Positions 1 to 18,238 of a DNA stretch of 18,404 bases are shown piece by piece. The notes beneath the pieces are model-generated. The model was not told the origin of the DNA, searched no databases, and worked only from the letters and a program-made list of their open reading frames with translations. The stretch is from IMG/VR virus record IMGVR_UViG_3300029713_000154; one strand, written 5' to 3'. Source of the DNA: a virus. Lineage: Duplodnaviria; Heunggongvirae; Uroviricota; Caudoviricetes. The position numbers and the translations under genes are program-made. Position 1 is the stretch's first letter. Each line of letters starts with the position of its first letter.

Positions 1-539
1 GGAGTGCCATGATGGTGCCCTCAGTGAGCCAGAGAGTTCAGTGTACGGGAATTCGTTTGCGAGCAGAACTGATAATATCCCTTTGTTCTCTTCTTAAATA
101 TTTATCTTTCTTGATAATTTACGATAAATACAGATACAAATTTAGCGAAAAGTTTTCCCCCTACAAACAACAGTAATTCATTAACTCTTTATTTTTCATT
201 TGGTTAAAAATTTTTCTCAATTTTGGCACGCTTCTCGCAATAACACTTTTGCGTTGATACTGAATTTCAAAGGGGGTTAATCCCCCGTCGGCACACCAGG
301 AACGGCCAGGCTGTTTTCCGGGCGTGTTCCGTCAGCCTTTGACGCCAATTATGGGTTCGATTCCCACATTCATTCCTGAAATGAATACTGGTTGTAACTT
401 ATTAAATAAAAAGTGAGGGATTGCGCAGTCAGCGATCCCCGATAACGTCGCCGATAAAGACGCCGGGTAACAGGCAAAAGGGAATTCCCCTGTCGCTTCG
501 TGTCTGCTTCCGCGACGGCTGTTAAGCAAGGAATAGATA

Positions 540-2464: not shown

Positions 2465-2480
2465 AGCCCGGCGTTATTTT
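2453..2480 (+). terminator. Rho-independent terminator of the SPFH-NTase operon
   Basis: Stem 2453-2460 CGCCGGGC / 2466-2473 GCCCGGCG with loop GTGAA, followed by TTATTTT. The TGA stop of the NTase gene lies in the hairpin, and the stop of the convergent minus-strand gene overlaps the T-tract. Confidence 0.6.
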
Positions 2481-2934
2481 ACGGCTGATATTGCCAGCTA
2501 CTGACTAAAGCGTACAAGTGGTTTGGGGAATAGCGCCAACTCTCCTTTAATTGCAGAAATTCGGCACAAAATTCGCTGCAAAACAGGCGTTCACGCTGTT
2601 CTTTATTACCGGTAATAATTCCAAGCGCGCCGCGCCAATCATATTTTTTGCCATCATGTTTATGGAAAAACGCTTCCACGTCCTGAAGGCTGGCCTGGAG
2701 CGGCAGCATATCCCACTTATCCGCTGGCAATGGCATTATCTTTCCGCGTACACCGCGATCGCGCAGTGATGCAGAGTAACAAAGGTAACTCTTTTCACCA
2801 TGCTTAACGGCTAATTCACAGTGGGAATAACTACCGCGCGTGATTTTACGGGTAAGCCAGTCAGCCAGTCGGGCAATACCACGGTGCTCTGTTCGGCCCT
2901 TATAACAAGCGAGCCAGACAGTGGTTTTACTCAT
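2479..2934 (-). CDS. Hypothetical 151-aa protein; possible permuted papain-fold (YiiX/YaeF-like, NlpC/P60 superfamily) enzyme; last gene of the tail operon
   Basis: Start ATG overlaps the TGA stop of the fibre assembly gene (ATGA at 2931-2934). His-before-Cys arrangement (YSHCEL ... LFCSEFCAEFL) recalls the permuted papain-like family. Assignment is from memory only. Confidence 0.4.
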   Translation of the reverse strand: MSKTTVWLACYKGRTEHRGIARLADWLTRKITRGSYSHCELAVKHGEKSYLCYSASLRDRGVRGKIMPLPADKWDMLPLQASLQDVEAFFHKHDGKKYDWRGALGIITGNKEQRERLFCSEFCAEFLQLKESWRYSPNHLYALVSSWQYQP

Positions 2935-3545
2935 GCTTGCCAGCCTGTTGAATAATCGTAGTCGAGCACCGCCTGAATATCGTCCAGAGCTTCCACCGCC
3001 GCGATATGGTGCTGGGCATTGGCGAACAGGCGCATATCGTGATCCATTGTTACCGATTCAAACTGGGCGGCGATCTCGTTGGTTAACTCGATCAGACCGT
3101 TATTTTTAGTTTTCCACATTAACCCTGGAGGGATTTTTTTCTCCGCTCCCATTTTTGTGAGTGAGAGCTGTTGGATACGGCTGTTTGTATCACTGTGGAA
3201 GTGATGGTTGTTGATGATGATGTAATCGGTTGTGACGTAATCCCGTTTGGATTTTATTCTTCTTATTATATCCGCTTTTATTTCTGAAATAAATTTAAGC
3301 ATTGAATCTGTATCAACTATCCATTCTCCTTTTTTTAGTTTGTGAAATCTATCTGGTGGTGGCGTAGAGATAAAGGATAAATCTTCACAGTTAATCCAAA
3401 TTGGGATATTAGCTTTCGCATATGTCTGCCATTGCTGATCAGTTATTTCAACTAAATGTTCTACTTTAGGATAGTTGTAGTGTTCTGTATCGATCCAGTC
3501 CAGAACGATAAATGTTTCAGGATCAAAACAAGCATATTTTGTCAT
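2931..3545 (-). CDS. Tail fibre assembly (chaperone) protein, Mu U / P2 gpG-like
   Basis: 204-aa ORF immediately downstream of the fibre gene. The N-terminal half is encoded in low-GC DNA contiguous with the fibre tip; the C-terminal half is higher GC. Confidence 0.7.
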   Translation of the reverse strand: MTKYACFDPETFIVLDWIDTEHYNYPKVEHLVEITDQQWQTYAKANIPIWINCEDLSFISTPPPDRFHKLKKGEWIVDTDSMLKFISEIKADIIRRIKSKRDYVTTDYIIINNHHFHSDTNSRIQQLSLTKMGAEKKIPPGLMWKTKNNGLIELTNEIAAQFESVTMDHDMRLFANAQHHIAAVEALDDIQAVLDYDYSTGWQA

Positions 3546-3551
3546 TTTTAA

Positions 3552-5378
3552 TTACCATGATATTTTTACGAAGCCAGAGGCACCTTTTGTTCCGCTAGTA
3601 TTGCCTAAATTTGTTAACTCATTATTTTTATATTGAAAAGGAGGTAAATAAGATCCCCCAGCTCCTCCAGAACCATAACCTGTTGCTGCTGTTGGCTTTG
3701 CCATTACTGCTTTTTTTCCACCATTACTTAGGTTTTCTGTAATAACAGTACCTGAAGCCCCTCCCTTTCCATATATAGAATTTTCACCATTCTTTCCAGG
3801 ATAAAATTCTGCAGATGACGGTATTGCATTTGGTGGAGTACCTTTAGGATCGTCACTGAATTTTATATAAGGCTGCGTAGTGTTAGAGTGATAAATGTTA
3901 TATCCTCCATGGCCACCTTTTGCAGTTAGATTAGAAAACGAAGAGTCTCCACCATCAAAGCTTTTTTGTGTTGTCTCTGTTTTATCATACGAATACTTTA
4001 TTTGTGAAACAGGTGGATTGTTCCAAAAAGGACCTCCATTACCTCCAGCTCCGATCTTTACTGAAAAATGCTGGCCTGGTGCCACGTTTAAGTAATCAAC
4101 AATCAATTCTCCTGCATTACCTCCGCAGGCTTCATAATGTGATGATTGTGCTCCTCCGGCCCCCCCACCTCCGCCGCCCATAATTTCCACAAATAATATT
4201 GTTACGCCCTCAGGAACTATAAATGTTCCATTTGTAGTATAAAAACTAGTGTGGGTATGATTAGCTGGAGCTGCAGTTTTTGCCTTATCCATTGCCGCCT
4301 TCACCGCGCTCGGTGTCGCCGCCTCCGTCGTACTGTTGCTATCCGTCGCGTTATTAAGCTTCACAATCCCTTTTTGCGACAGGGTGCCGTCTGGAACACC
4401 CGTAATCTGTCCCCATGGGTGAGTATGGTTTCCCGCAGCCTTACTATTCGCCAGGTCATATGCCGCCTTCACCGCGCTCGGTGTCGCCGCCTCCGTCGTA
4501 CTGTTGCTATTGGTCGCGTTATTAAGTTTCACAATCCCTTTTTGTGTCAGGGTACCGTCAGGAATACTCGTAATCTGCCCCCAGGGGTGCGTATGACTAC
4601 CCGCAGCCTTACTATTCGCCAGGTCATACGCCGCCTTCACTGCGCTCGGTGTCGCCGCCTCCGTCGTACTGTTGCTGTCTGTCGCGTTATTAAGCTTCAC
4701 AATCCCTTTTTGTGTCAGCGTACCATCTGGTATATCAGTAATCTGACTCCAGGTATGACGATGATTTCGAGCCTCAATCATTGCCGCTTTCACCGCTTTT
4801 GGCGTAGCCGCTTTGGTTTCGTCATCACTGTCAGTGGCGTTACTCAACTGTGTAAAGCCTTTTTGCGTTAACGTAGCATCAGGATGATTAGTCGAACGCT
4901 CATGTTCATCCAGTTGTGAATCAACATAATCCCGTGTTGCCAGTACAATACTGGGGTCAACGGTGAGTGTTACCGCAGTCGTGTTGGAAACTTCCATAAT
5001 CAGGCGAATGCAAACTTGCTTACCGCTGCCGCCGGGTAATAGTGGTTTATACGACTCCGGGAATTTACCGATAGCAATGAGTTCACCATCGGTATCAAAA
5101 ACGCCGACTTCACGTACATACCAGCCGCCGATATTTTCGGGCAGCACGAGTTCCGCAATTAACCAGTTAGGGTTATTGGGTGCAACTGTTAATGTATTTA
5201 AATCACCGCGCCATACTTCATGGCGTAATTTAGTTTGGCTGACGGTGGGTTCATAATATTGTCCTCCGCTGTCACCAACAGCCATTTTTTGTAGATGAAG
5301 CTGTTTTTTATCCGCCAGAGCATTGGCAATTTTTGCCATTCCCCTGTCGGTGAGTAGAGTATAAAACTCATTGTCCAT
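3552..5378 (-). CDS. Tail fibre protein (Mu S / P2 gpH-like) with internal ~56-aa repeats and a glycine-rich C-terminal receptor-binding region
   Basis: 608 aa. Repeated TLTQKGIVKLNNATDSNSTTEAATPSAVKAA units; C-terminal GGGGGGAGG and GAGGNGG stretches. ATG at 5378 with GGAG upstream; position between gpI and the fibre assembly gene. Confidence 0.85.
   Translation of the reverse strand: MDNEFYTLLTDRGMAKIANALADKKQLHLQKMAVGDSGGQYYEPTVSQTKLRHEVWRGDLNTLTVAPNNPNWLIAELVLPENIGGWYVREVGVFDTDGELIAIGKFPESYKPLLPGGSGKQVCIRLIMEVSNTTAVTLTVDPSIVLATRDYVDSQLDEHERSTNHPDATLTQKGFTQLSNATDSDDETKAATPKAVKAAMIEARNHRHTWSQITDIPDGTLTQKGIVKLNNATDSNSTTEAATPSAVKAAYDLANSKAAGSHTHPWGQITSIPDGTLTQKGIVKLNNATNSNSTTEAATPSAVKAAYDLANSKAAGNHTHPWGQITGVPDGTLSQKGIVKLNNATDSNSTTEAATPSAVKAAMDKAKTAAPANHTHTSFYTTNGTFIVPEGVTILFVEIMGGGGGGAGGAQSSHYEACGGNAGELIVDYLNVAPGQHFSVKIGAGGNGGPFWNNPPVSQIKYSYDKTETTQKSFDGGDSSFSNLTAKGGHGGYNIYHSNTTQPYIKFSDDPKGTPPNAIPSSAEFYPGKNGENSIYGKGGASGTVITENLSNGGKKAVMAKPTAATGYGSGGAGGSYLPPFQYKNNELTNLGNTSGTKGASGFVKISW
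4293..4900. repeat. Tandem in-frame 168-bp repeats (3 near-identical copies plus a divergent fourth) inside the tail fibre gene
   Basis: Copies begin at 4293, 4461 and 4629 (TGCCGCCTTCACCGCGCTCGGTGTCGCC...), with a degenerate copy from about 4797. Period 168 bp = 56 codons. Confidence 0.8.
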
Positions 5379-5380
5379 AA

Positions 5381-6013
5381 TTACTCCGGGTAAATAGATG
5401 TAATTTCAAGGCTCCATTGCCCTGTTCCGTAATAAATCGATGTGTTGTGCTGTACTTCCCGTATCTGGAAAGGTAAAACCGTCGTCAGTTCACCACCATA
5501 AAGTGCACAGCCAATAACAGGAATAGCACTTTGGTTAATGATCCAGACGATTAATGCTTCCAGTTTTGAACGTGTGTTTTTATATTCATGAATGAGTTCT
5601 ACCAAATCATTGAAAAGGTTTTCATCCAGGCCTTTATCCACCAGCGCTATATCCACCTTAAAAAAATAAGCCCTTCCCCCATATTCAAACCATTCTGAAA
5701 TAGTTCCTGGTAATGAGAGTATTTCCAGCACCCGCCGCACCGCCCAAATTGTTCCTTTATATTTATGCAGTTCAATGGCTTGTTTAATTAACTCGCGTTT
5801 CTCCCGCTCATCGGTGGTAAATAACCAACCTTCCAGCCCCTGAACGTGAAATTGTTCTGCAAGGGCTGGTAATGCCGAAGCATCAACCTGGTCGATCAGA
5901 TAAACCATCAACGCCGTCAGATCGAGTTGGGCAAAACGCTCGGCGGCGATATTTGCCAGAATCGAAAAACGCTCATCGCTGGCAAGCGGCGGCGGTGGCA
6001 GCAATTTATCCAT
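5381..6013 (-). CDS. Baseplate/tail protein gpI-like
   Basis: Track ORF 5381..6028 starts at TTG. ATG at 6013 (MDKLLPPP...) with GGAG upstream is the likelier start. Sits between the gpJ-like gene and the fibre gene. Confidence 0.75.
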   Translation of the reverse strand: MDKLLPPPPLASDERFSILANIAAERFAQLDLTALMVYLIDQVDASALPALAEQFHVQGLEGWLFTTDEREKRELIKQAIELHKYKGTIWAVRRVLEILSLPGTISEWFEYGGRAYFFKVDIALVDKGLDENLFNDLVELIHEYKNTRSKLEALIVWIINQSAIPVIGCALYGGELTTVLPFQIREVQHNTSIYYGTGQWSLEITSIYPE

Positions 6014-7121
6014 CGCTGACTCCGGCAATCGTGACGTCTATTGCGGTGCATTCCGCCCACTCATGCGCCTGCAAAATACGTTTTGTAGGCATATTCAGCG
6101 CAACGTCATAGACGCCATCGACCTGTAACACTTTGATTATCTGGTTTGGCACAATGTCCTGCCCCAGATGTTTCTGCCGCTGTTGCGTCCAGAGGCTAAT
6201 CGCTTTACGCGCTGCAGCCAGCGTTGTCTCCTGATCGGCGGTGGTAAACAGCGTTAGCTGCGCACGGATCTCATATGGCACTCGAAGAGCGCATTTCGCA
6301 CTCACTTTGTCGGTCAGCGGACGTTTTTTCTCCTTGCTAACCTCCTGTTCAATTTGCGCGAGCAGTTCTATTCCCGGCAGTCCGTTCAGAGTTAGCGGGT
6401 AGATCTCCACGCAGCCTTCTGGCAATCCCTCGTCCGGCCCCAGTACTGCAACGTCAATAATCGACTGGCTAACAGAAAGCGTATGAAAGCGGTAGGCACC
6501 ATAGCTGCCCGCATTACTAAAGCTTTCTGGTGCCAGTTGGATACGCTGGCGCAATGCGTCATCGCTCTCTTCACCGCAGCCGCCCGTTGACGCAGTCAGG
6601 TTGGTTACGTTGATGTCATAATGACCAATCCTGTCGACCAGTGCGCTAATTTGTGCAGGCTGCCAGCCGTTACCCTGTTCACCTGCTGCGAGGCTGGTGG
6701 CAGGAACGGCGATATGCAAACTCCTGGCCGGAAGCAGAACATCTTCATCGGTGGCGAACATCACGCTATCAGAGGCACTGGCCCGCGTTCCCTGGGGAAT
6801 CAGGATATTGCTGGTATACGCGCTGACGACCGAAAACTGCAACGTCGTTTTTGCCGGCTGCGCAGGCAAACGGTGAACGCCCACCAACTCCCCTAAATAA
6901 TCCAGCATTGGCGCGCGGGAATACGCGACCAGGTTCTGTTTCGCCGCTTCCTGAATGGCGATGCGTACAAGGTTTTCACGATAGGCAAACAGGTCGATGA
7001 GCAACCGCTCAGCCTGTGCCGGATAGAGTTTTTTACCGCTGGCATCTTCGTATTGCGCAATCATCTCACTGGTAATTTGCGCAGGATCGCGGTCAATAAA
7101 ATTGGGTTCGGCTATCGCCAT
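6006..7121 (-). CDS. Baseplate assembly protein gpJ-like (baseplate wedge)
   Basis: 371 aa. ATG at 7121 with GGAGGTG SD; overlaps the gpW-like gene by 10 nt. Synteny W-J-I-fibre. Confidence 0.8.
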   Translation of the reverse strand: MAIAEPNFIDRDPAQITSEMIAQYEDASGKKLYPAQAERLLIDLFAYRENLVRIAIQEAAKQNLVAYSRAPMLDYLGELVGVHRLPAQPAKTTLQFSVVSAYTSNILIPQGTRASASDSVMFATDEDVLLPARSLHIAVPATSLAAGEQGNGWQPAQISALVDRIGHYDINVTNLTASTGGCGEESDDALRQRIQLAPESFSNAGSYGAYRFHTLSVSQSIIDVAVLGPDEGLPEGCVEIYPLTLNGLPGIELLAQIEQEVSKEKKRPLTDKVSAKCALRVPYEIRAQLTLFTTADQETTLAAARKAISLWTQQRQKHLGQDIVPNQIIKVLQVDGVYDVALNMPTKRILQAHEWAECTAIDVTIAGVSDG

Positions 7122-7471
7122 AACACCTCCGTTGAGTTGATAACGCCGTCAGCGGCGCGCCATTGCACACGTAACGTCAGATGTTCGCCGTCGATTACTG
7201 GTGTCACCTTCAGCAACCGACAGCGCGGCTCCCACTGGCGGATGGCTTCCACCGACTCCCGTACCACATGCGGAATTGCCCGCTCGATGGGGTAATCGAT
7301 GTAGTGCCACAAGTTGCTGCCAAACAGCGGTCTGTGGGGATCACTGCCGCGCGGTGTGCGCAGAATGATGTGTATTGCCTGGTGAATATCATCCAGTCCG
7401 CAGACGTATTCTTCAGGCCGCTGCAAGGCCGGTTGCCAGTGCAGCGTTGAGGGTCGTGTTTTTGTGTTCAT
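7112..7471 (-). CDS. Baseplate protein gpW / gp25-like
   Basis: 119-aa ORF of typical gpW size, positioned between the spike and gpJ genes. Weak SD. Confidence 0.8.
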   Translation of the reverse strand: MNTKTRPSTLHWQPALQRPEEYVCGLDDIHQAIHIILRTPRGSDPHRPLFGSNLWHYIDYPIERAIPHVVRESVEAIRQWEPRCRLLKVTPVIDGEHLTLRVQWRAADGVINSTEVLWR

Positions 7472-7534
7472 GAGGGTATTTTCGCCCTGAACGGGCTGTG
7501 GCGATATTAAAGCGATTTAGAAAACTGATTGATT

Positions 7535-7564
7535 AAAAAGAGAAAACCCGCCATCAGGCGGGTT
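7535..7564 (-). terminator. Intrinsic-terminator-like hairpin between the gpV and gpW genes (minus-strand sense)
   Basis: Stem 7545-7552 AACCCGCC / 7557-7564 GGCGGGTT, loop ATCA. On the minus strand it is followed by UUCUCUUUUU, immediately after the gpV stop at 7570-7572. Confidence 0.4.
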
Positions 7565-7569
7565 AAACG

Positions 7570-8271
7570 TCAGTGTGTATGGTGGTTGGAGTTGCCACCG
7601 CTGTCCTGCAATGCGCCGCTGGCCTGAACGTTGCCGATCACGTTGACATTGCCAGTTATCGTGGCGGCGTTACCGATGCCTCCACTTCCTGCCATCCCGC
7701 CAAGCCAGGTGAGTTTTTTCATTACCGTGACATTGCCAGTAAAGGTGCTCATGGGCGCATCTACCGTCACTGCTGCCGCTTTAACATCGACCTTAGTGGC
7801 GTCGATGCTGACATCGGTCGCTTTAATATCGACGGTATCGGAAGTCACGGTGACCTGTTGGGCTTTAATCTCAACGTTGGGTGATGTCAGGCGGGTACTG
7901 TCGATAACCTCAATCACGATTTTCTCGATACCGCCGTTAATCGTCAGCTGGTGGGTGCTGCGGTCATATTCAAACGCTGCGCCATCAGAAAACTGGACGT
8001 AACGTTTATCGCGCGAGGCCACAGGCGCGGTGTCAACCGTAGAATAAACTGCGCCCAGCACCACGCCATCTTCACCGTTATTGTCCAGCAGAACTTCCAC
8101 TTGCTCGCCCATATCCGGTAGCCAGTAGTCTTTATTGTCCTGGGAATTGCGTTGAAGTACCGCAAGCCAGTTGCTCTTCAGATTGTCACACTCCGGAAGC
8201 GTGACTCGCACCCGAACGCTGGTTTCGTCAATATCGCTGATAATCCCCGTTTGACGGGTTACTCCTTTCAT
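7570..8271 (-). CDS. Baseplate central spike protein gpV-like
   Basis: 233 aa. N-terminal OB-fold-like region and a C-terminal repetitive beta-helix-like segment (VTVTSDTVDIKATDVSIDATKVDVKAAAVTVDA), Gly-rich tip. Strong SD AAGGAGG. Confidence 0.85.
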   Translation of the reverse strand: MKGVTRQTGIISDIDETSVRVRVTLPECDNLKSNWLAVLQRNSQDNKDYWLPDMGEQVEVLLDNNGEDGVVLGAVYSTVDTAPVASRDKRYVQFSDGAAFEYDRSTHQLTINGGIEKIVIEVIDSTRLTSPNVEIKAQQVTVTSDTVDIKATDVSIDATKVDVKAAAVTVDAPMSTFTGNVTVMKKLTWLGGMAGSGGIGNAATITGNVNVIGNVQASGALQDSGGNSNHHTH

Positions 8272-10471: not shown

Positions 10472-12846
10472 CAGGCATACCCCCGGCGCTGTTGTTGCGC
10501 CATTACGTCGTTAATCATTCTTTCAAGTTCGCGTTTACTCATCGTCAACACGTTCTGAATCTCTTTAGTGGTGTTTTGTCCGTTACCCTGCACGGTAATC
10601 TGTGGCGAAAAATTCACCTGAACTTTTCCAGAGGAACGGGAAGGTAGCGTCGCCGGTTTGGTTACGGATTTACCAGGTAAAGAGGCCAATGCGGGTTTGG
10701 CGGCTGTATTTTTTGCCGCAGGTGCCGATGGCGGCGTTGTCGTTTTACTGGATGGCGCGAGTTGTTTCCCCACCGGAGGCGTTAAAATCGCACCGGCAAC
10801 GCCTGGAACAACGCTCGCGGGGGAGACGGATGCGGTATTAGTCGTGCTTGTAATAGCTGTAGCCGATCCTTCTGTACTAATACCCATCGTGGTTTTTAGC
10901 CAGTCTGGGATGACGTTTTTGACCTGATCAATAATGCCTTTCAGAGCGGGGAAGGCATTCATTATGCCGTCGGCCAGGCTAGCCAGAAGATTGCTGCCGA
11001 ACTCGCTAAAACTCGCAGGCATTTCAACACCAAACCAATTCATCACACTGGAAAAGGCGCTATAGAACAACTCCAGCGGCGACCAGTCGAGAATTAACCG
11101 ACAAATTTCTGCAATGCCGCCGTCAAAGGCCGTGGTGATACGTTGCCAGATGGTAGAAAAGAACCTGGAGATAGGCTCCCAGTTGCGATAAATCAGATAA
11201 GCAGCGCCCGCAATCGCAGTGATGACCAGACCAATGGGATTCATCAATAAAACCCTACCCAACCAGAAGACGGTCTGACCTGCCTGTTTCAGTGCGCCAA
11301 TCAGGCCACGACCAAGCAGTTGCGTTAGCCATTTTGCACCGCCACCCAATGACTTAACCGCTGATAGCATCTTACTTGCCCCGCCTGTGAGTGCCAGACT
11401 TGCCCTGACTTTCAGGAAGATATCGACCAGACGAATAAACGGCGAGGCGATGAAGTTCGCGCCCAGTTTTAAAACATTCAGCGCGCCGTTAAACAGCCAA
11501 ATCGCCCCGACGATTTTCGCAATGTTTTGCACCAGTGCCGGGTGCTCACGTAGCCAGGCGCTGAACTGGCGAACAACCGGCGTAAGGCTTTGTGCCAGCT
11601 CGCCAATCAGCGGCATTAATTGCAAGCCAATGCTGAGCCATAAATCATTTAACGCCAGCTGTAACGCTTTAGTCTGTTCAATGGGCGAGGCCATTTGCGC
11701 AGAAAAGTCGGCATCAATCAGATTCTTGCTGCTGGCTTGCATGGCAGAGGCTTTTAACTGGCGATATTCCTCCATATTCGCCAGCATAGGTGCCAGGAAT
11801 TCCACAGTTTGCGCATCGCCGAACATTTCGCCCAGATTAAATTGCGTCACCATCGATTGCAGCGCATTGCTGCGAGCAGATAAATCTTCAATCTGCATAG
11901 TGCGTTTGAAGGTGCCGAGGATCGCCGGATTCATCTTCTCAAGCTGCATTTGCACGATATGAGTCATGGCTTCGCTAACACCCATACCGTTTTGCTGATG
12001 CTCAAGCAGAGAGCCTTGCAGATCAACGCCCTGGCTGGCGAACCAGTTATCGGTTTTTTTCGAAAAGGTGGTTTGCAGAAAGTGGTCGAAATTCTCCGCC
12101 GCCGCACTGGCGCTGGCCCCGTTTTTCATGGCGATCTGCATGATGGCGGTCAGTTCAGCCATACCTTCCAGACCCTGAGCGCCGGTTTTACCTGCAAATT
12201 TCTCTATCCACTGCGTTTGTTCGGCAACGGCAGGCCCACCGCTTTTGCTAATGCCATACATCATGTTTTGCGTGGCGTGGAAATTTTCCGGGGCAATATT
12301 CAATCGATCATGAGTCGCGAGCGCGGCATTCGCCCACGTTTCAGCACTTTCGCGCGTGGCGGTGGCAGCTTTGGCGATCTCCGGCATATAACGGTTGAGA
12401 TCCTGCATCGACGACAAATTGCCTTCGATCAGCGTTTGGGCTGCGTTCTGTAAGGTGGTCTGCTGCTGGTTAAAATCCATGCTCCAGTCGCGCAGATTAA
12501 GGCTGAGCGTCTCGCGGGTTGTAGCATTCATCCCACCTTTGGTCGCCATATTGACCATGTTGTCCTGGAACTCATATGGCAACTTCCAGTCGGGGGCTTC
12601 AACATTGAATACCTTGCTAAATTGCCCGGCAAATGTTTGGGTTTTCTCCATTAGATCAGCGCGGTTCCGGCTATTTTCCTCCAGGCGGAGAGCAGAATCG
12701 GCAAGTTGCTGCGTTAGTTTGATTACTGTCGCTTGCTGAGAAGAGAGAGCTAACAAAGTTCTGGCGTTGAGTGAGCCGTAACGGGCTATTGCCTGCGTCA
12801 ACGTCTCATTACGCGCCTGAAGCTGGGTAATAATATCGTTGGCCAA
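10471..12846 (-). CDS. Tail tape measure protein
   Basis: 791 aa, Ala/Gln-rich helical N-terminal half with a central hydrophobic segment; position after the chaperone gene. Apparent TTG start at 12846 with AAGAG upstream. Confidence 0.85.
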   Translation of the reverse strand: MANDIITQLQARNETLTQAIARYGSLNARTLLALSSQQATVIKLTQQLADSALRLEENSRNRADLMEKTQTFAGQFSKVFNVEAPDWKLPYEFQDNMVNMATKGGMNATTRETLSLNLRDWSMDFNQQQTTLQNAAQTLIEGNLSSMQDLNRYMPEIAKAATATRESAETWANAALATHDRLNIAPENFHATQNMMYGISKSGGPAVAEQTQWIEKFAGKTGAQGLEGMAELTAIMQIAMKNGASASAAAENFDHFLQTTFSKKTDNWFASQGVDLQGSLLEHQQNGMGVSEAMTHIVQMQLEKMNPAILGTFKRTMQIEDLSARSNALQSMVTQFNLGEMFGDAQTVEFLAPMLANMEEYRQLKASAMQASSKNLIDADFSAQMASPIEQTKALQLALNDLWLSIGLQLMPLIGELAQSLTPVVRQFSAWLREHPALVQNIAKIVGAIWLFNGALNVLKLGANFIASPFIRLVDIFLKVRASLALTGGASKMLSAVKSLGGGAKWLTQLLGRGLIGALKQAGQTVFWLGRVLLMNPIGLVITAIAGAAYLIYRNWEPISRFFSTIWQRITTAFDGGIAEICRLILDWSPLELFYSAFSSVMNWFGVEMPASFSEFGSNLLASLADGIMNAFPALKGIIDQVKNVIPDWLKTTMGISTEGSATAITSTTNTASVSPASVVPGVAGAILTPPVGKQLAPSSKTTTPPSAPAAKNTAAKPALASLPGKSVTKPATLPSRSSGKVQVNFSPQITVQGNGQNTTKEIQNVLTMSKRELERMINDVMAQQQRRGYA

Positions 12847-15352: not shown

Positions 15353-15539
15353 GTACAATTTCCTCTACGTTATTTTGTTCTTCCTGAGTGATGACAGGAG
15401 TCAGATGATTGCGGGCAATCATGGTCATGACCCACTCGTTGTCTTCTGGCAGATCAATTTCACTGTTCGGCCACAATAAGATTTCTTGTCCATCGGCAAG
15501 GGTGACGCCGCTTGCCGGGCCGTTGTAGATGTATTTCAT
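15342..15539 (-). CDS. Small tail-associated protein (65 aa), function unknown
   Basis: ATGA-type coupling to the upstream gene; overlaps the sheath start. Conserved position immediately upstream of the sheath gene. Confidence 0.45.
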   Translation of the reverse strand: MKYIYNGPASGVTLADGQEILLWPNSEIDLPEDNEWVMTMIARNHLTPVITQEEQNNVEEIVHGS

Positions 15540-15991
15540 TCAGTTTCCTCGTAGTTAACTTCCGTAAGCAGGGGAAGATCCGTGCTTTCCTGTTCAGCGA
15601 TAAACAGCGAGCTGGTCGCCATTTCCAGGATGTAGCGGCAGAAACCGCCGCTCTCACCCGTATTAATTTCTTTTTCAAGCCAAAGCAGACGATCGCAATC
15701 AGGAAGCTGAAGGCCGCCCAATGCGCTGCGTATGCAATCAAGTGCGTTTAACGCGTCACAATTTTTGTCAACAATAACGGTGGCGGTTAAGCGGAGTATT
15801 TGCTGTTGCACGATGGCATCACTGCTTTCGGGTGTGGTAAAGACAGAACCGCTATAATTAATAATCACTGCAACTTGTTGTGTCTGTGGAATATATTTCT
15901 GGGCATCCGTAGATGAAATAAATATATCCATTTCAGGATGCCGATCACGTAATTTGACCATGACATAATTCATTGCAGATAAAATTTTCAT
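15536..15991 (-). CDS. Putative tail completion / terminator-like protein (151 aa); first gene of the tail operon
   Basis: ATG at 15991 with AAGGT upstream; first ORF after the terminator that ends the lysis cassette. Function inferred from position only. Confidence 0.45.
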   Translation of the reverse strand: MKILSAMNYVMVKLRDRHPEMDIFISSTDAQKYIPQTQQVAVIINYSGSVFTTPESSDAIVQQQILRLTATVIVDKNCDALNALDCIRSALGGLQLPDCDRLLWLEKEINTGESGGFCRYILEMATSSLFIAEQESTDLPLLTEVNYEETE

Positions 15992-16046
15992 ATGAGGTGT
16001 ACCTTAATTACCGCTCACTTCGTTATCGTTGAGATGTATTATGAAG

Positions 16047-16091
16047 CAGTGAAGGTGAAGAATCTTTTAATGTGATTTAGAGAAAAAATTG
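16047..16091 (-). promoter_or_regulatory. Candidate activator-dependent late promoter element upstream of the tail operon
   Basis: 45-nt block shared with the lysis-operon upstream region at 17406-17450; sense strand CNATTTTTT-N28-CTTCACTG at identical spacing. Confidence 0.35.
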
Positions 16092-16100
16092 AATGGCTAT

Positions 16101-16133
16101 AAAAAATCCCCACACTTACGTAAAGGTGGGGAT
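16101..16133 (-). terminator. Rho-independent terminator after the lysis cassette
   Basis: Stem 16106-16113 ATCCCCAC / 16126-16133 GTGGGGAT, followed on the minus strand by UUUUUU. Lies 5 nt after the spanin-like gene stop. Confidence 0.55.
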
Positions 16134-16137
16134 GTAT

Positions 16138-16452
16138 TTAATAACTGCCACGTTGTAACAGCTCGATTTTGCTATATAAGGCATCCAGCTTTGCTTCTAA
16201 TACTGCTTGCCCACGAAGATAATCTTCTCTGCGGACATAATGCAGCGGAAGCTCGGCACGAAATTCAAGAAACTCTCTTTCCAGTTTCGACCAACTTGTT
16301 TCTGATTCCCTGCGGGCATTTTCCAGAGACTCAAAACGCTCATTAAGTCGTTTTTCAATTTGCGCTAACAGCAGTTTTCCGGCAGCAAACATTAATCCAA
16401 CGAAGGAAAGCATAAGGGAGATCACTTCCCAAAAATCGATACTGAGTTTCAT
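16138..16452 (-). CDS. Putative i-spanin (Rz-like): N-terminal transmembrane segment plus coiled coil
   Basis: 104 aa. Hydrophobic residues 8-26, then charged heptad-like sequence. Directly downstream of the endolysin gene; GAGGGG SD. Confidence 0.5.
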   Translation of the reverse strand: MKLSIDFWEVISLMLSFVGLMFAAGKLLLAQIEKRLNERFESLENARRESETSWSKLEREFLEFRAELPLHYVRREDYLRGQAVLEAKLDALYSKIELLQRGSY

Positions 16453-16464
16453 CGGCCCCTCTGA

Positions 16465-17070
16465 TTAGTGAAGACAGCTTGCCTGTCCCCAGAGTAAATA
16501 GCGGGCAGCGTGTTGATAGAGAATCATCTTTGGATAGCGACGATTTTCTCGCCAGTTCGCGGCGCTGCGCCCGGCGTTGACTTGCTCGACATGACCAAAC
16601 CAGCGAGTGGCATCTAACCCTTTGGATGCAGCCAGTTTTTTATCCCGGTTAACCCACCCCTGACCGCCGTTATAGGCGCTTAGGGTAAACGCCATACGCT
16701 GACAGTCATTTTGCGCAGAGATGTTTTTCCACAAATGCTGGTCATATTGCACCAGCGCGCGAATCGCCCAGGTTGGGTTATACGGTTTGTTTTCACGCAA
16801 TTGTGGATACAACTGGCTTATCCATGTCGCAGTAGCAGGCATAAATTGCGCCATACCTTGTGCGCCAACGGGGGAACGTACCATTGGCTGCCAGGCGGAC
16901 TCCTGGTGTAATTGCCCGGCAAAGTCGGCCACTGGGGCATTCAGCCCCCAGACTTCTCGAGCTGTACGAATTAGTTCGTTTCGCCATGCCAGAGAGGCTC
17001 GCGGCGGTTCAGAGGCGTTAAGCGGGAAAAGAACGAAAATAATCATAGACGCGATATATTTCAGCCACAT
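16465..17070 (-). CDS. Endolysin, SLT-domain lytic transglycosylase with N-terminal signal or SAR sequence
   Basis: SLT family-1 motifs (HQESAWQP, GAQGMAQFMP, AYNGG). Likely start is ATG 17070 (MWLKYIASMIIFVLFPLNA). The track extension to 17148 overlaps the holin gene in another frame and is discounted. Confidence 0.8.
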   Translation of the reverse strand: MWLKYIASMIIFVLFPLNASEPPRASLAWRNELIRTAREVWGLNAPVADFAGQLHQESAWQPMVRSPVGAQGMAQFMPATATWISQLYPQLRENKPYNPTWAIRALVQYDQHLWKNISAQNDCQRMAFTLSAYNGGQGWVNRDKKLAASKGLDATRWFGHVEQVNAGRSAANWRENRRYPKMILYQHAARYLLWGQASCLH

Positions 17071-17072
17071 CA

Positions 17073-17360
17073 CTATAGCCCTAAGGCGACGGAAAGACAG
17101 ACGGCGGCAACGATGATGGCGCGGCGAATCATTGCCGCCGCGCAGCAACGCGGTTCCTTCCAGGGGCTAAAAGAGTCAGGCCGTGCCCAGGGGAACAAAC
17201 TGCGATCGAGCCAGTATCCCAGAACCGCGGAAAGCGAAACCAGGCTTAGTTTATAAATGACGACCGGGATCTGTGCTGAAGAGGTCCAGCCGATCACGAC
17301 AAACAGCGCGACGGAAGCGACCAGCCAGCCGGAAAGCCGGGGAAAAGTGACTTTTTTCAT
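17073..17360 (-). CDS. Holin or pinholin-like small membrane protein
   Basis: 95 aa with 2-3 hydrophobic segments; strong AGGAGA SD; immediately upstream of the endolysin gene. Confidence 0.5.
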   Translation of the reverse strand: MKKVTFPRLSGWLVASVALFVVIGWTSSAQIPVVIYKLSLVSLSAVLGYWLDRSLFPWARPDSFSPWKEPRCCAAAMIRRAIIVAAVCLSVALGL

Positions 17361-17405
17361 ACGATATCTCCTGATAAGTGAGCGTTTAGTGTCGTCAGAA
17401 CCCGC

Positions 17406-17450
17406 CAGTGAAGAATGAAAAAAGCTTTAATAAATAAGTTTAAAAAATAG
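17406..17450 (-). promoter_or_regulatory. Candidate activator-dependent late promoter element upstream of the lysis operon
   Basis: Same bipartite motif as 16047-16091; it ends about 45 nt upstream of the holin ATG. Confidence 0.35.
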
Positions 17451-17656
17451 ATTCTCTATAAATGAACATGCCCGCTAATAAATCGACTCAGCAATTAAAG
17501 AGCAAACGGTGACCTGGCGAATAAGCGCGTCATTATGCAGGGAAAAGATGATGGTGGATCGTAGGAATAGTCGATAGTTATTTGATTTTTAAAGTTTGTT
17601 TAAGAAAGTCAGCGACTGTGAGGGAAACGATCTTTTTACACTACAGGTAAAAATAA

Positions 17657-17676
17657 TACTGTATGTGCATACAGTA
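17657..17676. promoter_or_regulatory. LexA (SOS) box
   Basis: TACTGTATGTGCATACAGTA matches the consensus TACTG-(TA)5-CAGTA at all ten flanking positions, with a CTGT-N8-ACAG core. Lies in the 535-bp AT-rich divergent regulatory region, upstream of a TAAAAT -10-like hexamer (17682-17687) and a TTGACA (17698-17703). Confidence 0.6.
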
Positions 17677-17896: not shown

Positions 17897-18238
17897 ATGA
17901 TACGAAAATCAAAAGAGATGGCCCGGACACCGGAGATCATTAACGACCTGGCTTTTCATGCATCGCAAGTTCTGATTGAAAGCATCAATCTCGACAGTTC
18001 ATCGGCAGAAAATGTGGGTTTTGCCATTGCCGACCGAATGATGCGTAACTGGGGCGGACAAAGCATTTATTTCCCTAAGGGGATCTCCGGACGAGCATCG
18101 GAGCGTGACTACCAAATCTATAGCGAGTGCGATGGGCGCAACTACGCCGAATTAGCGAAGAAATATAATCTGACGCTGCAATGGATTTATAAGATAGTCA
18201 AACGTGTACATACGGAGAAGCAGCAGAGTCGTATGTAG
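17897..18238 (+). CDS. Mor/C-family transcriptional activator (Mu middle/late operon regulator-like)
   Basis: 113 aa. C-terminal helix-turn-helix-like region (YAELAKKYNLTLQWIYKIVKR) typical of Mor/C proteins; GGAG SD. Divergent from the lysis and tail operons. Confidence 0.75.
   Translation: MIRKSKEMARTPEIINDLAFHASQVLIESINLDSSSAENVGFAIADRMMRNWGGQSIYFPKGISGRASERDYQIYSECDGRNYAELAKKYNLTLQWIYKIVKRVHTEKQQSRM

Follow-up and report, generated by a model that had tools for sequence, protein, structure and literature searches.

Predicted activator-dependent late promoters with a Mu Mor-like box in a tailocin island beside lysC of Escherichia coli

Introduction

The transcription activators Mor and C of bacteriophage Mu bind imperfect dyads that are centred at -43.5 and replace the -35 element, while the RNA polymerase alpha subunit, through its C-terminal domain (alphaCTD), contacts A/T-rich DNA just upstream (PMC4390567, PMC2582627, PMC4287176). 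At the Mu middle promoter Pm, which has no -35, the Mor-binding dyad occupies -51 to -36 (PMC4287176), and in Mu the bases just downstream of the Mor or C site matter as well (PMC2582627). Carotovoricin-type clusters are described as Mu-type tailocins that are induced by DNA damage (PMC13566846, PMC11974492). Here we describe the predicted late promoters of a tailocin on a stretch of 18,404 nucleotides (nt), deposited as a virus of the Caudoviricetes (IMG/VR record IMGVR_UViG_3300029713_000154) and called the window below, at its full length. According to its RefSeq annotation, the window is an Escherichia coli chromosomal island between yjbD and lysC that carries tail and lysis genes and has no head genes; annotation and homology together give it a lysis cassette of the Bcepmuvirus type and genes for a contractile tail, and none for a head, for replication or for transposition. 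Judged by its genes, it is a headless carotovoricin/Bcepmuvirus-like tailocin beside lysC.

Our main subject is the two regions upstream of the lysis operon (P_lys) and the tail operon (P_tail). A preliminary description had read both as activator-dependent late promoters without a good sigma-70 -35, and had seen in them two copies, A and B, of a bipartite motif that aligns without gaps:

17406..17450, minus strand: motif copy A, upstream of the holin gene; exact sequence CTATTTTTTAAACTTATTTATTAAAGCTTTTTTCATTCTTCACTG (reading 17450-17406)
16047..16091, minus strand: motif copy B, upstream of the gp37-family gene and the tail operon; exact sequence CAATTTTTTCTCTAAATCACATTAAAAGATTCTTCACCTTCACTG (reading 16091-16047)

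We consider it likely that both regions are activator-dependent sigma-70 late promoters of the tailocin, each with a box of the Mu Pm/Mor type, and that the activator would be the Mor-family protein encoded by the island itself. A literature search found no paper on these boxes or on the promoters of this island, and a paper on an ST131 “tailocin” turned out to concern a P2-like prophage rather than the lysC island.

Results

A Dyad at a Fixed Distance From the -10 Element

Orthologous promoters were compared among 11 lysC islands, and a wider set of 94 loci also took in related phage and tailocin loci. Given 52 non-redundant holin-upstream regions, from which the entire E. coli lineage had been excluded, a Gibbs sampler returned the consensus TAAmsCssTTTAAAAkC, 67-73 nt ahead of the holin start, which forms an imperfect dyad around a G/C-rich spacer (TTAAA-N4-TTTAA). 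Exactly 23 nt past the right half-site, 36 of 37 clear sites have a hexamer whose second base is A and whose sixth is T, and no competing offset stands out. The conserved unit, seen in the 11 islands and in about 50 related phage or tailocin loci, is this dyad, ending 23 nt upstream of a -10 (nAnnnT) and without a -35. The same 23-nt spacing is common to P_lys, P_tail and a third site of the window, P_W, which precedes gpW. A position weight matrix (PWM) was trained on the independent sites, i.e., those from outside the E. coli lineage, and both strands of the window were scanned with it, chance being estimated from 300 shuffled windows. The elements of the three promoters are these:

17417..17430, minus strand: proximal box of P_lys, TTAAA-GCTT-TTTTC, an 8/10 match to the dyad at about -49 to -36; 5.25 bits by PWM, with 0.016-0.045 such matches expected per 130 positions
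17388..17393, minus strand: predicted -10 of P_lys, GACACT (sAnAyT in orthologues); predicted start near 17380-17383, holin ATG at 17360
16067..16080, minus strand: box of P_tail, CTAAA-TCAC-ATTAA, an 8/10 match to the dyad; 10.3 bits by PWM, with 0.002-0.007 expected per 130 positions; kept in 11/11
16038..16043, minus strand: predicted -10 of P_tail, CATAAT (nAnAAT plus AC in orthologues); predicted start near 16030, gp37 ATG at 15991
7507..7520, minus strand: box of P_W, CTAAA-TCGC-TTTAA, a 9/10 match to the dyad, in the gap between genes V and W; 18.85 bits by PWM at 7501-7522
7478..7483, minus strand: predicted -10 of P_W, GAAAAT, 23 nt past the box and followed after 6 nt by the gpW ATG (7471)

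Among the orthologues, the layout of P_lys is invariant (TAAAs-N3-TTTyC-N23-sAnAyT, 11/11; in E. coli TAAAG-CTT-TTTTC, 23 nt and GACACT, 17393-17388), and that of P_tail is TAAAk-N3-ATTAA-N23-nAnAAT-AC (in E. coli TAAAT-CAC-ATTAA, 23 nt and CATAAT, 16043-16038); the distance from box to -10 is the same in all 11 islands at both promoters alike. The box of P_W is the top PWM match of the whole window, with a score that only 6 of the 300 shuffled windows reach. If the -10 is counted as -12 to -7, the dyad centre falls near -42.5, a value that depends on a predicted start site. Where a -35 would be expected, P_lys, P_tail and P_W match TTGACA at 2-3 of 6 bases, none of them has the TGn of an extended -10, and a sigma-70 consensus scan found no promoter at either copy A or copy B. 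Neither region has a usable -35, as had been observed before, and the -10 is conserved in both; unaided initiation by sigma-70 polymerase is unlikely because both a -35 and an extended -10 are missing.

The same box stands upstream of the holin and tail operons in the carotovoricin-type clusters of Pectobacterium, Brenneria and Lonsdalea, and before the holin of Escherichia phage PhiKM (Bcepmuvirus); upstream of the holin of Pseudomonas phage B3, which has a related endolysin, no obvious box was seen. Mu Pm itself carries the element AGTAAAGCCGGTTAAT, whose GTTAA ends 23 nt before TATCCT (its +1 was fixed from permanganate-sensitive positions quoted in PMC4287176). At the level of sequence the island thus has what marks a Mor/C-type promoter: a PF08765 gene in the element, a -10 without a -35, and a dyad at the position of the one in Mu Pm, with numbering that starts from a predicted +1. 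That the lysis and tail operons have late promoters dependent on an activator, as proposed in the preliminary description, is the best reading because no usable -35 is present, the -10 is conserved, the element has a Mor-family gene and the geometry is that of Mor and C.

The Pectobacterium clusters also have an extra promoter, made up of a box plus GATACT, just past the tube gene (near 10824 in locus L012, and in the same place in L013, L016, L017, L020 and L024); E. coli is without a counterpart. One more PWM match in the window (14.4 bits at 261-282, minus strand, GATTAACCCCCTTTGAAATTCA) is probably a chance match and no part of the tailocin system, and was rejected because its segment, which lies upstream of slipin and nucleotidyltransferase genes, occurs in far more genomes (1632 of 5426 E. 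coli genomes) than the tailocin does and has no -10 at +23.

Several points weigh against our interpretation. The proximal box of P_lys is weak: its right half reads TTTTC and its 5.25 bits are reached somewhere in 294 of the 300 shuffled windows; the case for it rests mainly on conservation and spacing. The bare dyad pattern, which is short and AT-rich, is not enriched in the window (3 found vs. 1.3 expected), so that significance comes from the PWM, the spacing and the conservation. The -10 assignments and position numbers are predictions drawn from conservation. The dyad upstream of the activator gene, described below, has a 5-nt spacer and a 22-nt distance, and its hexamer is imperfect in E. 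albertii and Dryocola. Finally, no Mor-family gene was found within 6 kb of the Pectobacterium-type clusters, though the boxes are present there.

Flanking Elements

Three further elements lie next to the boxes:

16083..16089, minus strand: T-tract of P_tail (the ATTTTTT of copy B), at about -58 to -52, the position of the alphaCTD/UP-like subsite of Mu Pm; a similar role is presumed
17430..17443, minus strand: distal dyad of P_lys, TTAAA-CTTA-TTTAT, which takes in the 3' end of the ATTTTTT block of copy A; near-invariant in 9/11 orthologues, with a presumed function
17410..17416, minus strand: rTTCTTC, a conserved stretch within the -35 region of P_lys; of CTTCACTG in copy A, only the part that coincides with the last four of these bases is conserved

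The conserved AT-rich blocks might be sites for host factors (alphaCTD at an UP element, IHF, Fis or H-NS) instead of the Mor-family protein, with promoters that answer SOS or growth signals and need no dedicated activator. Their T- and A-tracts are phased at ~10 bp, as UP elements and bent DNA typically show, the T-tract of P_tail stands where alphaCTD binds at Mu Pm, and the Pectobacterium clusters lack an adjacent Mor gene. Yet the box takes the place of the -35 and reaches -36, nearer than an UP element could lie, the Mor operator of Mu Pm has matching half-sites and the same 23-nt spacing, and a Mor-family gene accompanies the boxes in 11 of 11 lysC islands; we therefore hold the host-factor explanation to be improbable.

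The 45-nt Motif

Both motif sequences are indeed present on the minus strand; copy A ends 45 nt ahead of the holin ATG (17360) and copy B 55 nt ahead of the gp37 ATG (15991), and ATTTTTT-N28-CTTCACTG has no exact occurrence in the window other than these two. The two 120-nt upstream regions were shuffled 1000 times with dinucleotides preserved, and against this background the gapless alignment by itself is marginal. The best ungapped identity over 45 nt (25/45) was matched or exceeded in 13% of the shuffles (p = 0.13), and the longest shared run, 9 nt (ATTCTTCAC, on a different diagonal), was reached in 13%; the sum of the two exact runs on one diagonal (15) was reached in 0.9% (p = 0.009), by a statistic that was picked post hoc. 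Two sequences alone cannot decide between a motif and chance, and for this reason the orthologues were brought in.

It now seems very unlikely that the activator, or a second factor, recognizes the literal pattern as its unit, with the two blocks acting together at a fixed spacing. In its favor are the rarity of the two-block match among shuffles and the fact that ATTCTTCAC occurs exactly in the window only at the two late promoters (about -35 to -27 and -32 to -24), in the -35 region, where bases downstream of the activator site matter in Mu (PMC2582627). At the lysis promoter, however, ATTTTTT is kept in 7-11 of the 11 orthologues and CTTC in 8-11, with ACTG kept in just 1-3; at the tail promoter the columns of CTTCACTG are kept in 3-7 of 11, and of ATTTTTT only the 3' Ts. 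The pattern also varies among E. coli alleles of the tail promoter, the commonest of which has CTTCGCTG and another CTTCATTA, with box, spacing and -10 all retained, while copy A of E. albertii reads CTTCAGCA. In the whole-genome and homologous-island search that had been suggested, the literal pattern was confined to E. coli copies and absent from the 93 other loci; what the orthologues have in common instead is a dyad of the TTAAA-N4-TTTAA type, which the preliminary description had passed over. An activator site should be conserved, since the activator proteins are 81-97% identical across the island-bearing genera, and this too counts against the literal motif. Searched as separate words, CTTCACTG and ATTCTTCAC gave no informative additional sites.

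The two copies also differ in where they stand relative to the core promoter. With respect to the TAAA anchor, the blocks lie at -19 and +16 in A and at -10 and +25 in B, an offset of 9 nt relative to the conserved -10, with the CTTCACTG block at -32 to -25 in A and -23 to -16 in B. As the distance from TAAA to the -10 is equal in the two promoters, it is the ungapped alignment that is 9 nt out of register. The motif as a conserved bipartite unit is not borne out, either by conservation of both blocks in the homologous islands or by a common place in the promoter, and the 45-nt motif has to be given up as a recognition unit, with CTTCACTG limited to some Escherichia alleles and at unequal distances from the two -10 elements. 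Judged by the orthologues, the CTTCACTG block is a non-conserved, lineage-specific coincidence and ATTTTTT a conserved T-tract only; in copy A the latter is part of the distal dyad, and the CTTC at P_lys belongs to a conserved TTTTCrTTCTTC.

Least credible of all is that two AT-rich intergenic regions resemble each other by chance and that the operons are transcribed from elsewhere, e.g., by read-through from upstream, for while the shuffles of identity and run length and the unenriched bare dyad would allow it, the box-to-(-10) spacing is invariant at both regions and holds at 36 of 37 independent phage and tailocin loci, P_tail and P_W each have a strong intrinsic terminator directly upstream, and matches of an independently trained PWM at P_tail and P_W are unlikely to arise by chance in upstream regions.

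The Activator Gene and Its Upstream Region

The presumed activator is encoded divergently from the lysis and tail operons:

17897..18238, plus strand, divergent: Mor-family transcription activator gene, 113 amino acids; Pfam PF08765 (E=2e-37), PHROG 532 “late transcriptional activator,” RefSeq “Mor transcription activator family protein”
17635..17676, plus strand: sigma-70 promoter TTTACA-16-TACTGT, overlapped by the LexA box TACTGTATGTGCATACAGTA (17657-17676)
17589..17603, plus strand: perfect dyad TTAAA-GTTTG-TTTAA with a 5-nt spacer, upstream of the activator gene; the sole exact dyad match in the window
17626..17631, plus strand: -10-like AACGAT, 22 nt past the dyad and directed toward the Mor gene; a candidate autoregulated promoter

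The protein shares 27% identity with Mu Mor; with Mu C the figure is 34%, from a partial alignment that covers 64 residues. The LexA box is a near-consensus CTGT-N8-ACAG that overlaps the -10 of TTTACA-16-TACTGT and is kept in 9 of 11 orthologues; by this predicted box the activator gene would be a member of the LexA (SOS) regulon. The TTAAA-N5-TTTAA dyad stands in the same place in 7 of 11 orthologues, and E. coli, Salmonella, Citrobacter and Phytobacter have, at the 22-nt spacing, a hexamer nAsnAT that again has A at position 2 and T at position 6 (AACGAT, AGCAAT, TACGAT). From 17589 to 17676 on the plus strand the order is dyad and -10-like hexamer, then the LexA-overlapped sigma-70 promoter, followed by a leader of ~220 nt and the ATG. 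This tandem layout suggests positive autoregulation that is gated by LexA. Read in reverse, as a promoter toward the activator gene, the AT block of P_lys has no conserved -10.

Operons, Terminators, and the gpW Promoter

The transcription units downstream of these promoters, and the terminators between them, are as follows:

17360-17073, minus strand: holin gene
17070-16465, minus strand: lytic transglycosylase gene
16452-16138, minus strand: gene of an Rz-like membrane protein
16101..16133, minus strand: intrinsic terminator closing the lysis operon (stem 16133-16106 plus U-run), -15.5 kcal/mol, z=-3.96
15991-15536, minus strand: Gp37-family gene, first of the tail operon, then the sheath, tube, tape measure, D, V, W, J, I and fibre genes
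7535..7564, minus strand: intrinsic terminator after the baseplate gene V, -15.3 kcal/mol, z=-3.94

Since an intrinsic terminator lies directly upstream of each, P_tail and P_W would head separate transcription units. In the terminator that closes the lysis operon, the two sides of the stem differ in a compensatory way from one E. coli allele to another (CCCCACCTTTACGTAAGTGTGGGG vs. CCCCACCCTTATGTAAGGGTGGGG), and a third allele (L096) has no such terminator at all. In the leader of the tail operon (15992-16037, minus strand), GAACnnTnACGrAG is conserved among the orthologues; in most genera it is followed by a hairpin whose stems differ (GAGAGA..TCTCTC, GGAGAG..CTCTCC) and which is absent in E. 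coli and E. albertii. RNAalifold found no consensus structure for this leader. The best PHROG match of the Gp37-family protein (15536-15991, minus strand) is phrog_209, labelled “portal protein,” though the island is without head genes, and this is probably a problem of the PHROG label.

The preliminary description had also stated that no such motif precedes gpW. This is true of the literal string, but the best match of the window to the functional box lies exactly there, and together with its -10 it points to a third late promoter that had been overlooked, as had the dyad upstream of the activator gene. The cassette of terminator, box and -10 (7564-7478) is conserved in a related contig, in Xenorhabdus and in Pectobacterium polaris (L090, L091, and L092). 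The start of gpW (7466-7495, minus strand) has no Shine-Dalgarno sequence, and the closeness of the -10 to the ATG is conserved in Xenorhabdus and Pectobacterium (GGGCGAAAATrCCCTCATG / GGGGGCGATACTGCCCCCATG), with the -10 of P_W located in the loop of an inverted repeat. These observations suggest either that the gpW mRNA is leaderless or that, on read-through transcripts, the hairpin brings a G-rich, Shine-Dalgarno-like stretch near the AUG. In addition, in the region 7112-7570, gpW is much less conserved across genera (78% identity for the best protein from outside E. coli, at most 73% for the others) than the sheath and tube proteins of the lysC islands (79-94%), and the gap between V and W, with its terminator and promoter, may be an exchange junction for the module of baseplate-wedge and fibre (specificity) genes at 2479-7471.

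Distribution of the Island

The island is carried by ~190 of 5426 complete E. coli genomes (~3.5%). Its location next to lysC-pgi is common to E. albertii, Salmonella, Citrobacter freundii, Enterobacter hormaechei and two metagenomic enterobacteria, and the island is further present in Phytobacter, Dryocola and Superficieibacter. The lysis and tail genes are homologous to those of carotovoricin-type clusters in Pectobacterium, Brenneria, Lonsdalea and Samsonia, and the best phage relatives of the transglycosylase are transposable phages, including Escherichia phage PhiKM, which is classed as a Bcepmuvirus.

Discussion

If both regions are indeed Mor-type late promoters, the following course of events can be proposed. 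DNA damage would lead to cleavage of LexA, which would leave the promoter of the activator gene, and the Mor-like protein would be made. This protein would bind the boxes and recruit sigma-70 RNA polymerase to P_lys, P_tail and P_W, and could possibly boost its own gene via the dyad at 17589-17603. P_lys would then drive the holin, lytic transglycosylase and Rz-like genes, and P_tail the gp37, sheath, tube and downstream genes. One may speculate that the combination of the weakest proximal box and a distal dyad at P_lys delays lysis relative to tail synthesis.

A fuller scheme, which we offer tentatively and as much the less probable of the two, is that a single LexA-controlled Mor-family activator runs the whole program through four graded boxes: P_W at 18.9, P_tail at 10.3 and P_lys at 5.3 bits, with structural genes first and lysis last and cooperative, positive feedback on the activator gene, and gpW made from a leaderless transcript whose first bases are its AUG. 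If true, E. coli, Salmonella, Citrobacter and Enterobacter would share a compact and conserved circuit for timing, set at one fixed place in the chromosome.

With the simpler reading, that of late promoters with Mor-type boxes, a little-studied tailocin, predicted to be SOS-inducible, obtains a regulatory map that consists of a single activator, three late promoters and a candidate site for feedback. The consensus of dyad, 23 nt and -10 can serve in the annotation of late operons, both in Bcepmuvirus-like prophages and in clusters of the carotovoricin type. The Mu Mor/C paradigm would be extended to this group by a mechanism that is itself already known and will not surprise the specialist. 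There is a methodological point as well: a motif that convinces the eye in two sequences can sit out of register with the real signal.

In a broad sense the arrangement resembles that of Ogr/Delta of P2 and of PrtN and the P-box of the R-pyocins, where likewise induction lets a small dedicated activator turn on the operons for tail and lysis in a contractile-tail element, although activator family and site are different in both cases. A P2 Ogr/Delta-type late promoter was considered and rejected: the dyad of such promoters, TGT-N12-ACA with its centre near -55, occurs at 2890, 3513 and 10105 in the window (4.0 expected by chance), never near the promoters.

The likeness to the carotovoricin Er-type clusters of Pectobacterium is far more detailed, with homologous holin, transglycosylase, Rz-like, gp37, sheath and tube genes and the same boxes at the same 23-nt spacing before the holin, the tail operon and a third site. 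In E. coli, unlike Pectobacterium, the activator gene is adjacent and has a LexA box of its own. The corresponding activator of the Pectobacterium clusters, whose response to DNA damage is under rdgA/rdgB control, is presumably the Mor-like RdgB. When homologues of the island activator were searched for that name, only close relatives were returned, none of them so named.

Like the C-dependent late promoters of Mu, the island has several late units with their own promoters, among them promoters before lysis and baseplate genes, each with a -10, no -35 and a dyad (PMC2582627); unlike the island box, the C site of the C-dependent Plys is of the TTAT...ATAA type. The closest parallel is Mu Pm. 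Both systems have an element-encoded Mor-family activator and a -10 without a -35 or extended -10; in both, a dyad with a G/C-rich spacer and nearly the same half-sites lies over the -35 region, its right half 23 nt before the -10, with A/T-rich DNA just upstream, where alphaCTD binds in Mu. They differ in that a single activator appears to drive the lysis, tail and baseplate operons of the island directly, without a cascade from Mor to C, and in that the activator gene of the island has a LexA box, whereas that of Mu depends on early transcription by the phage.

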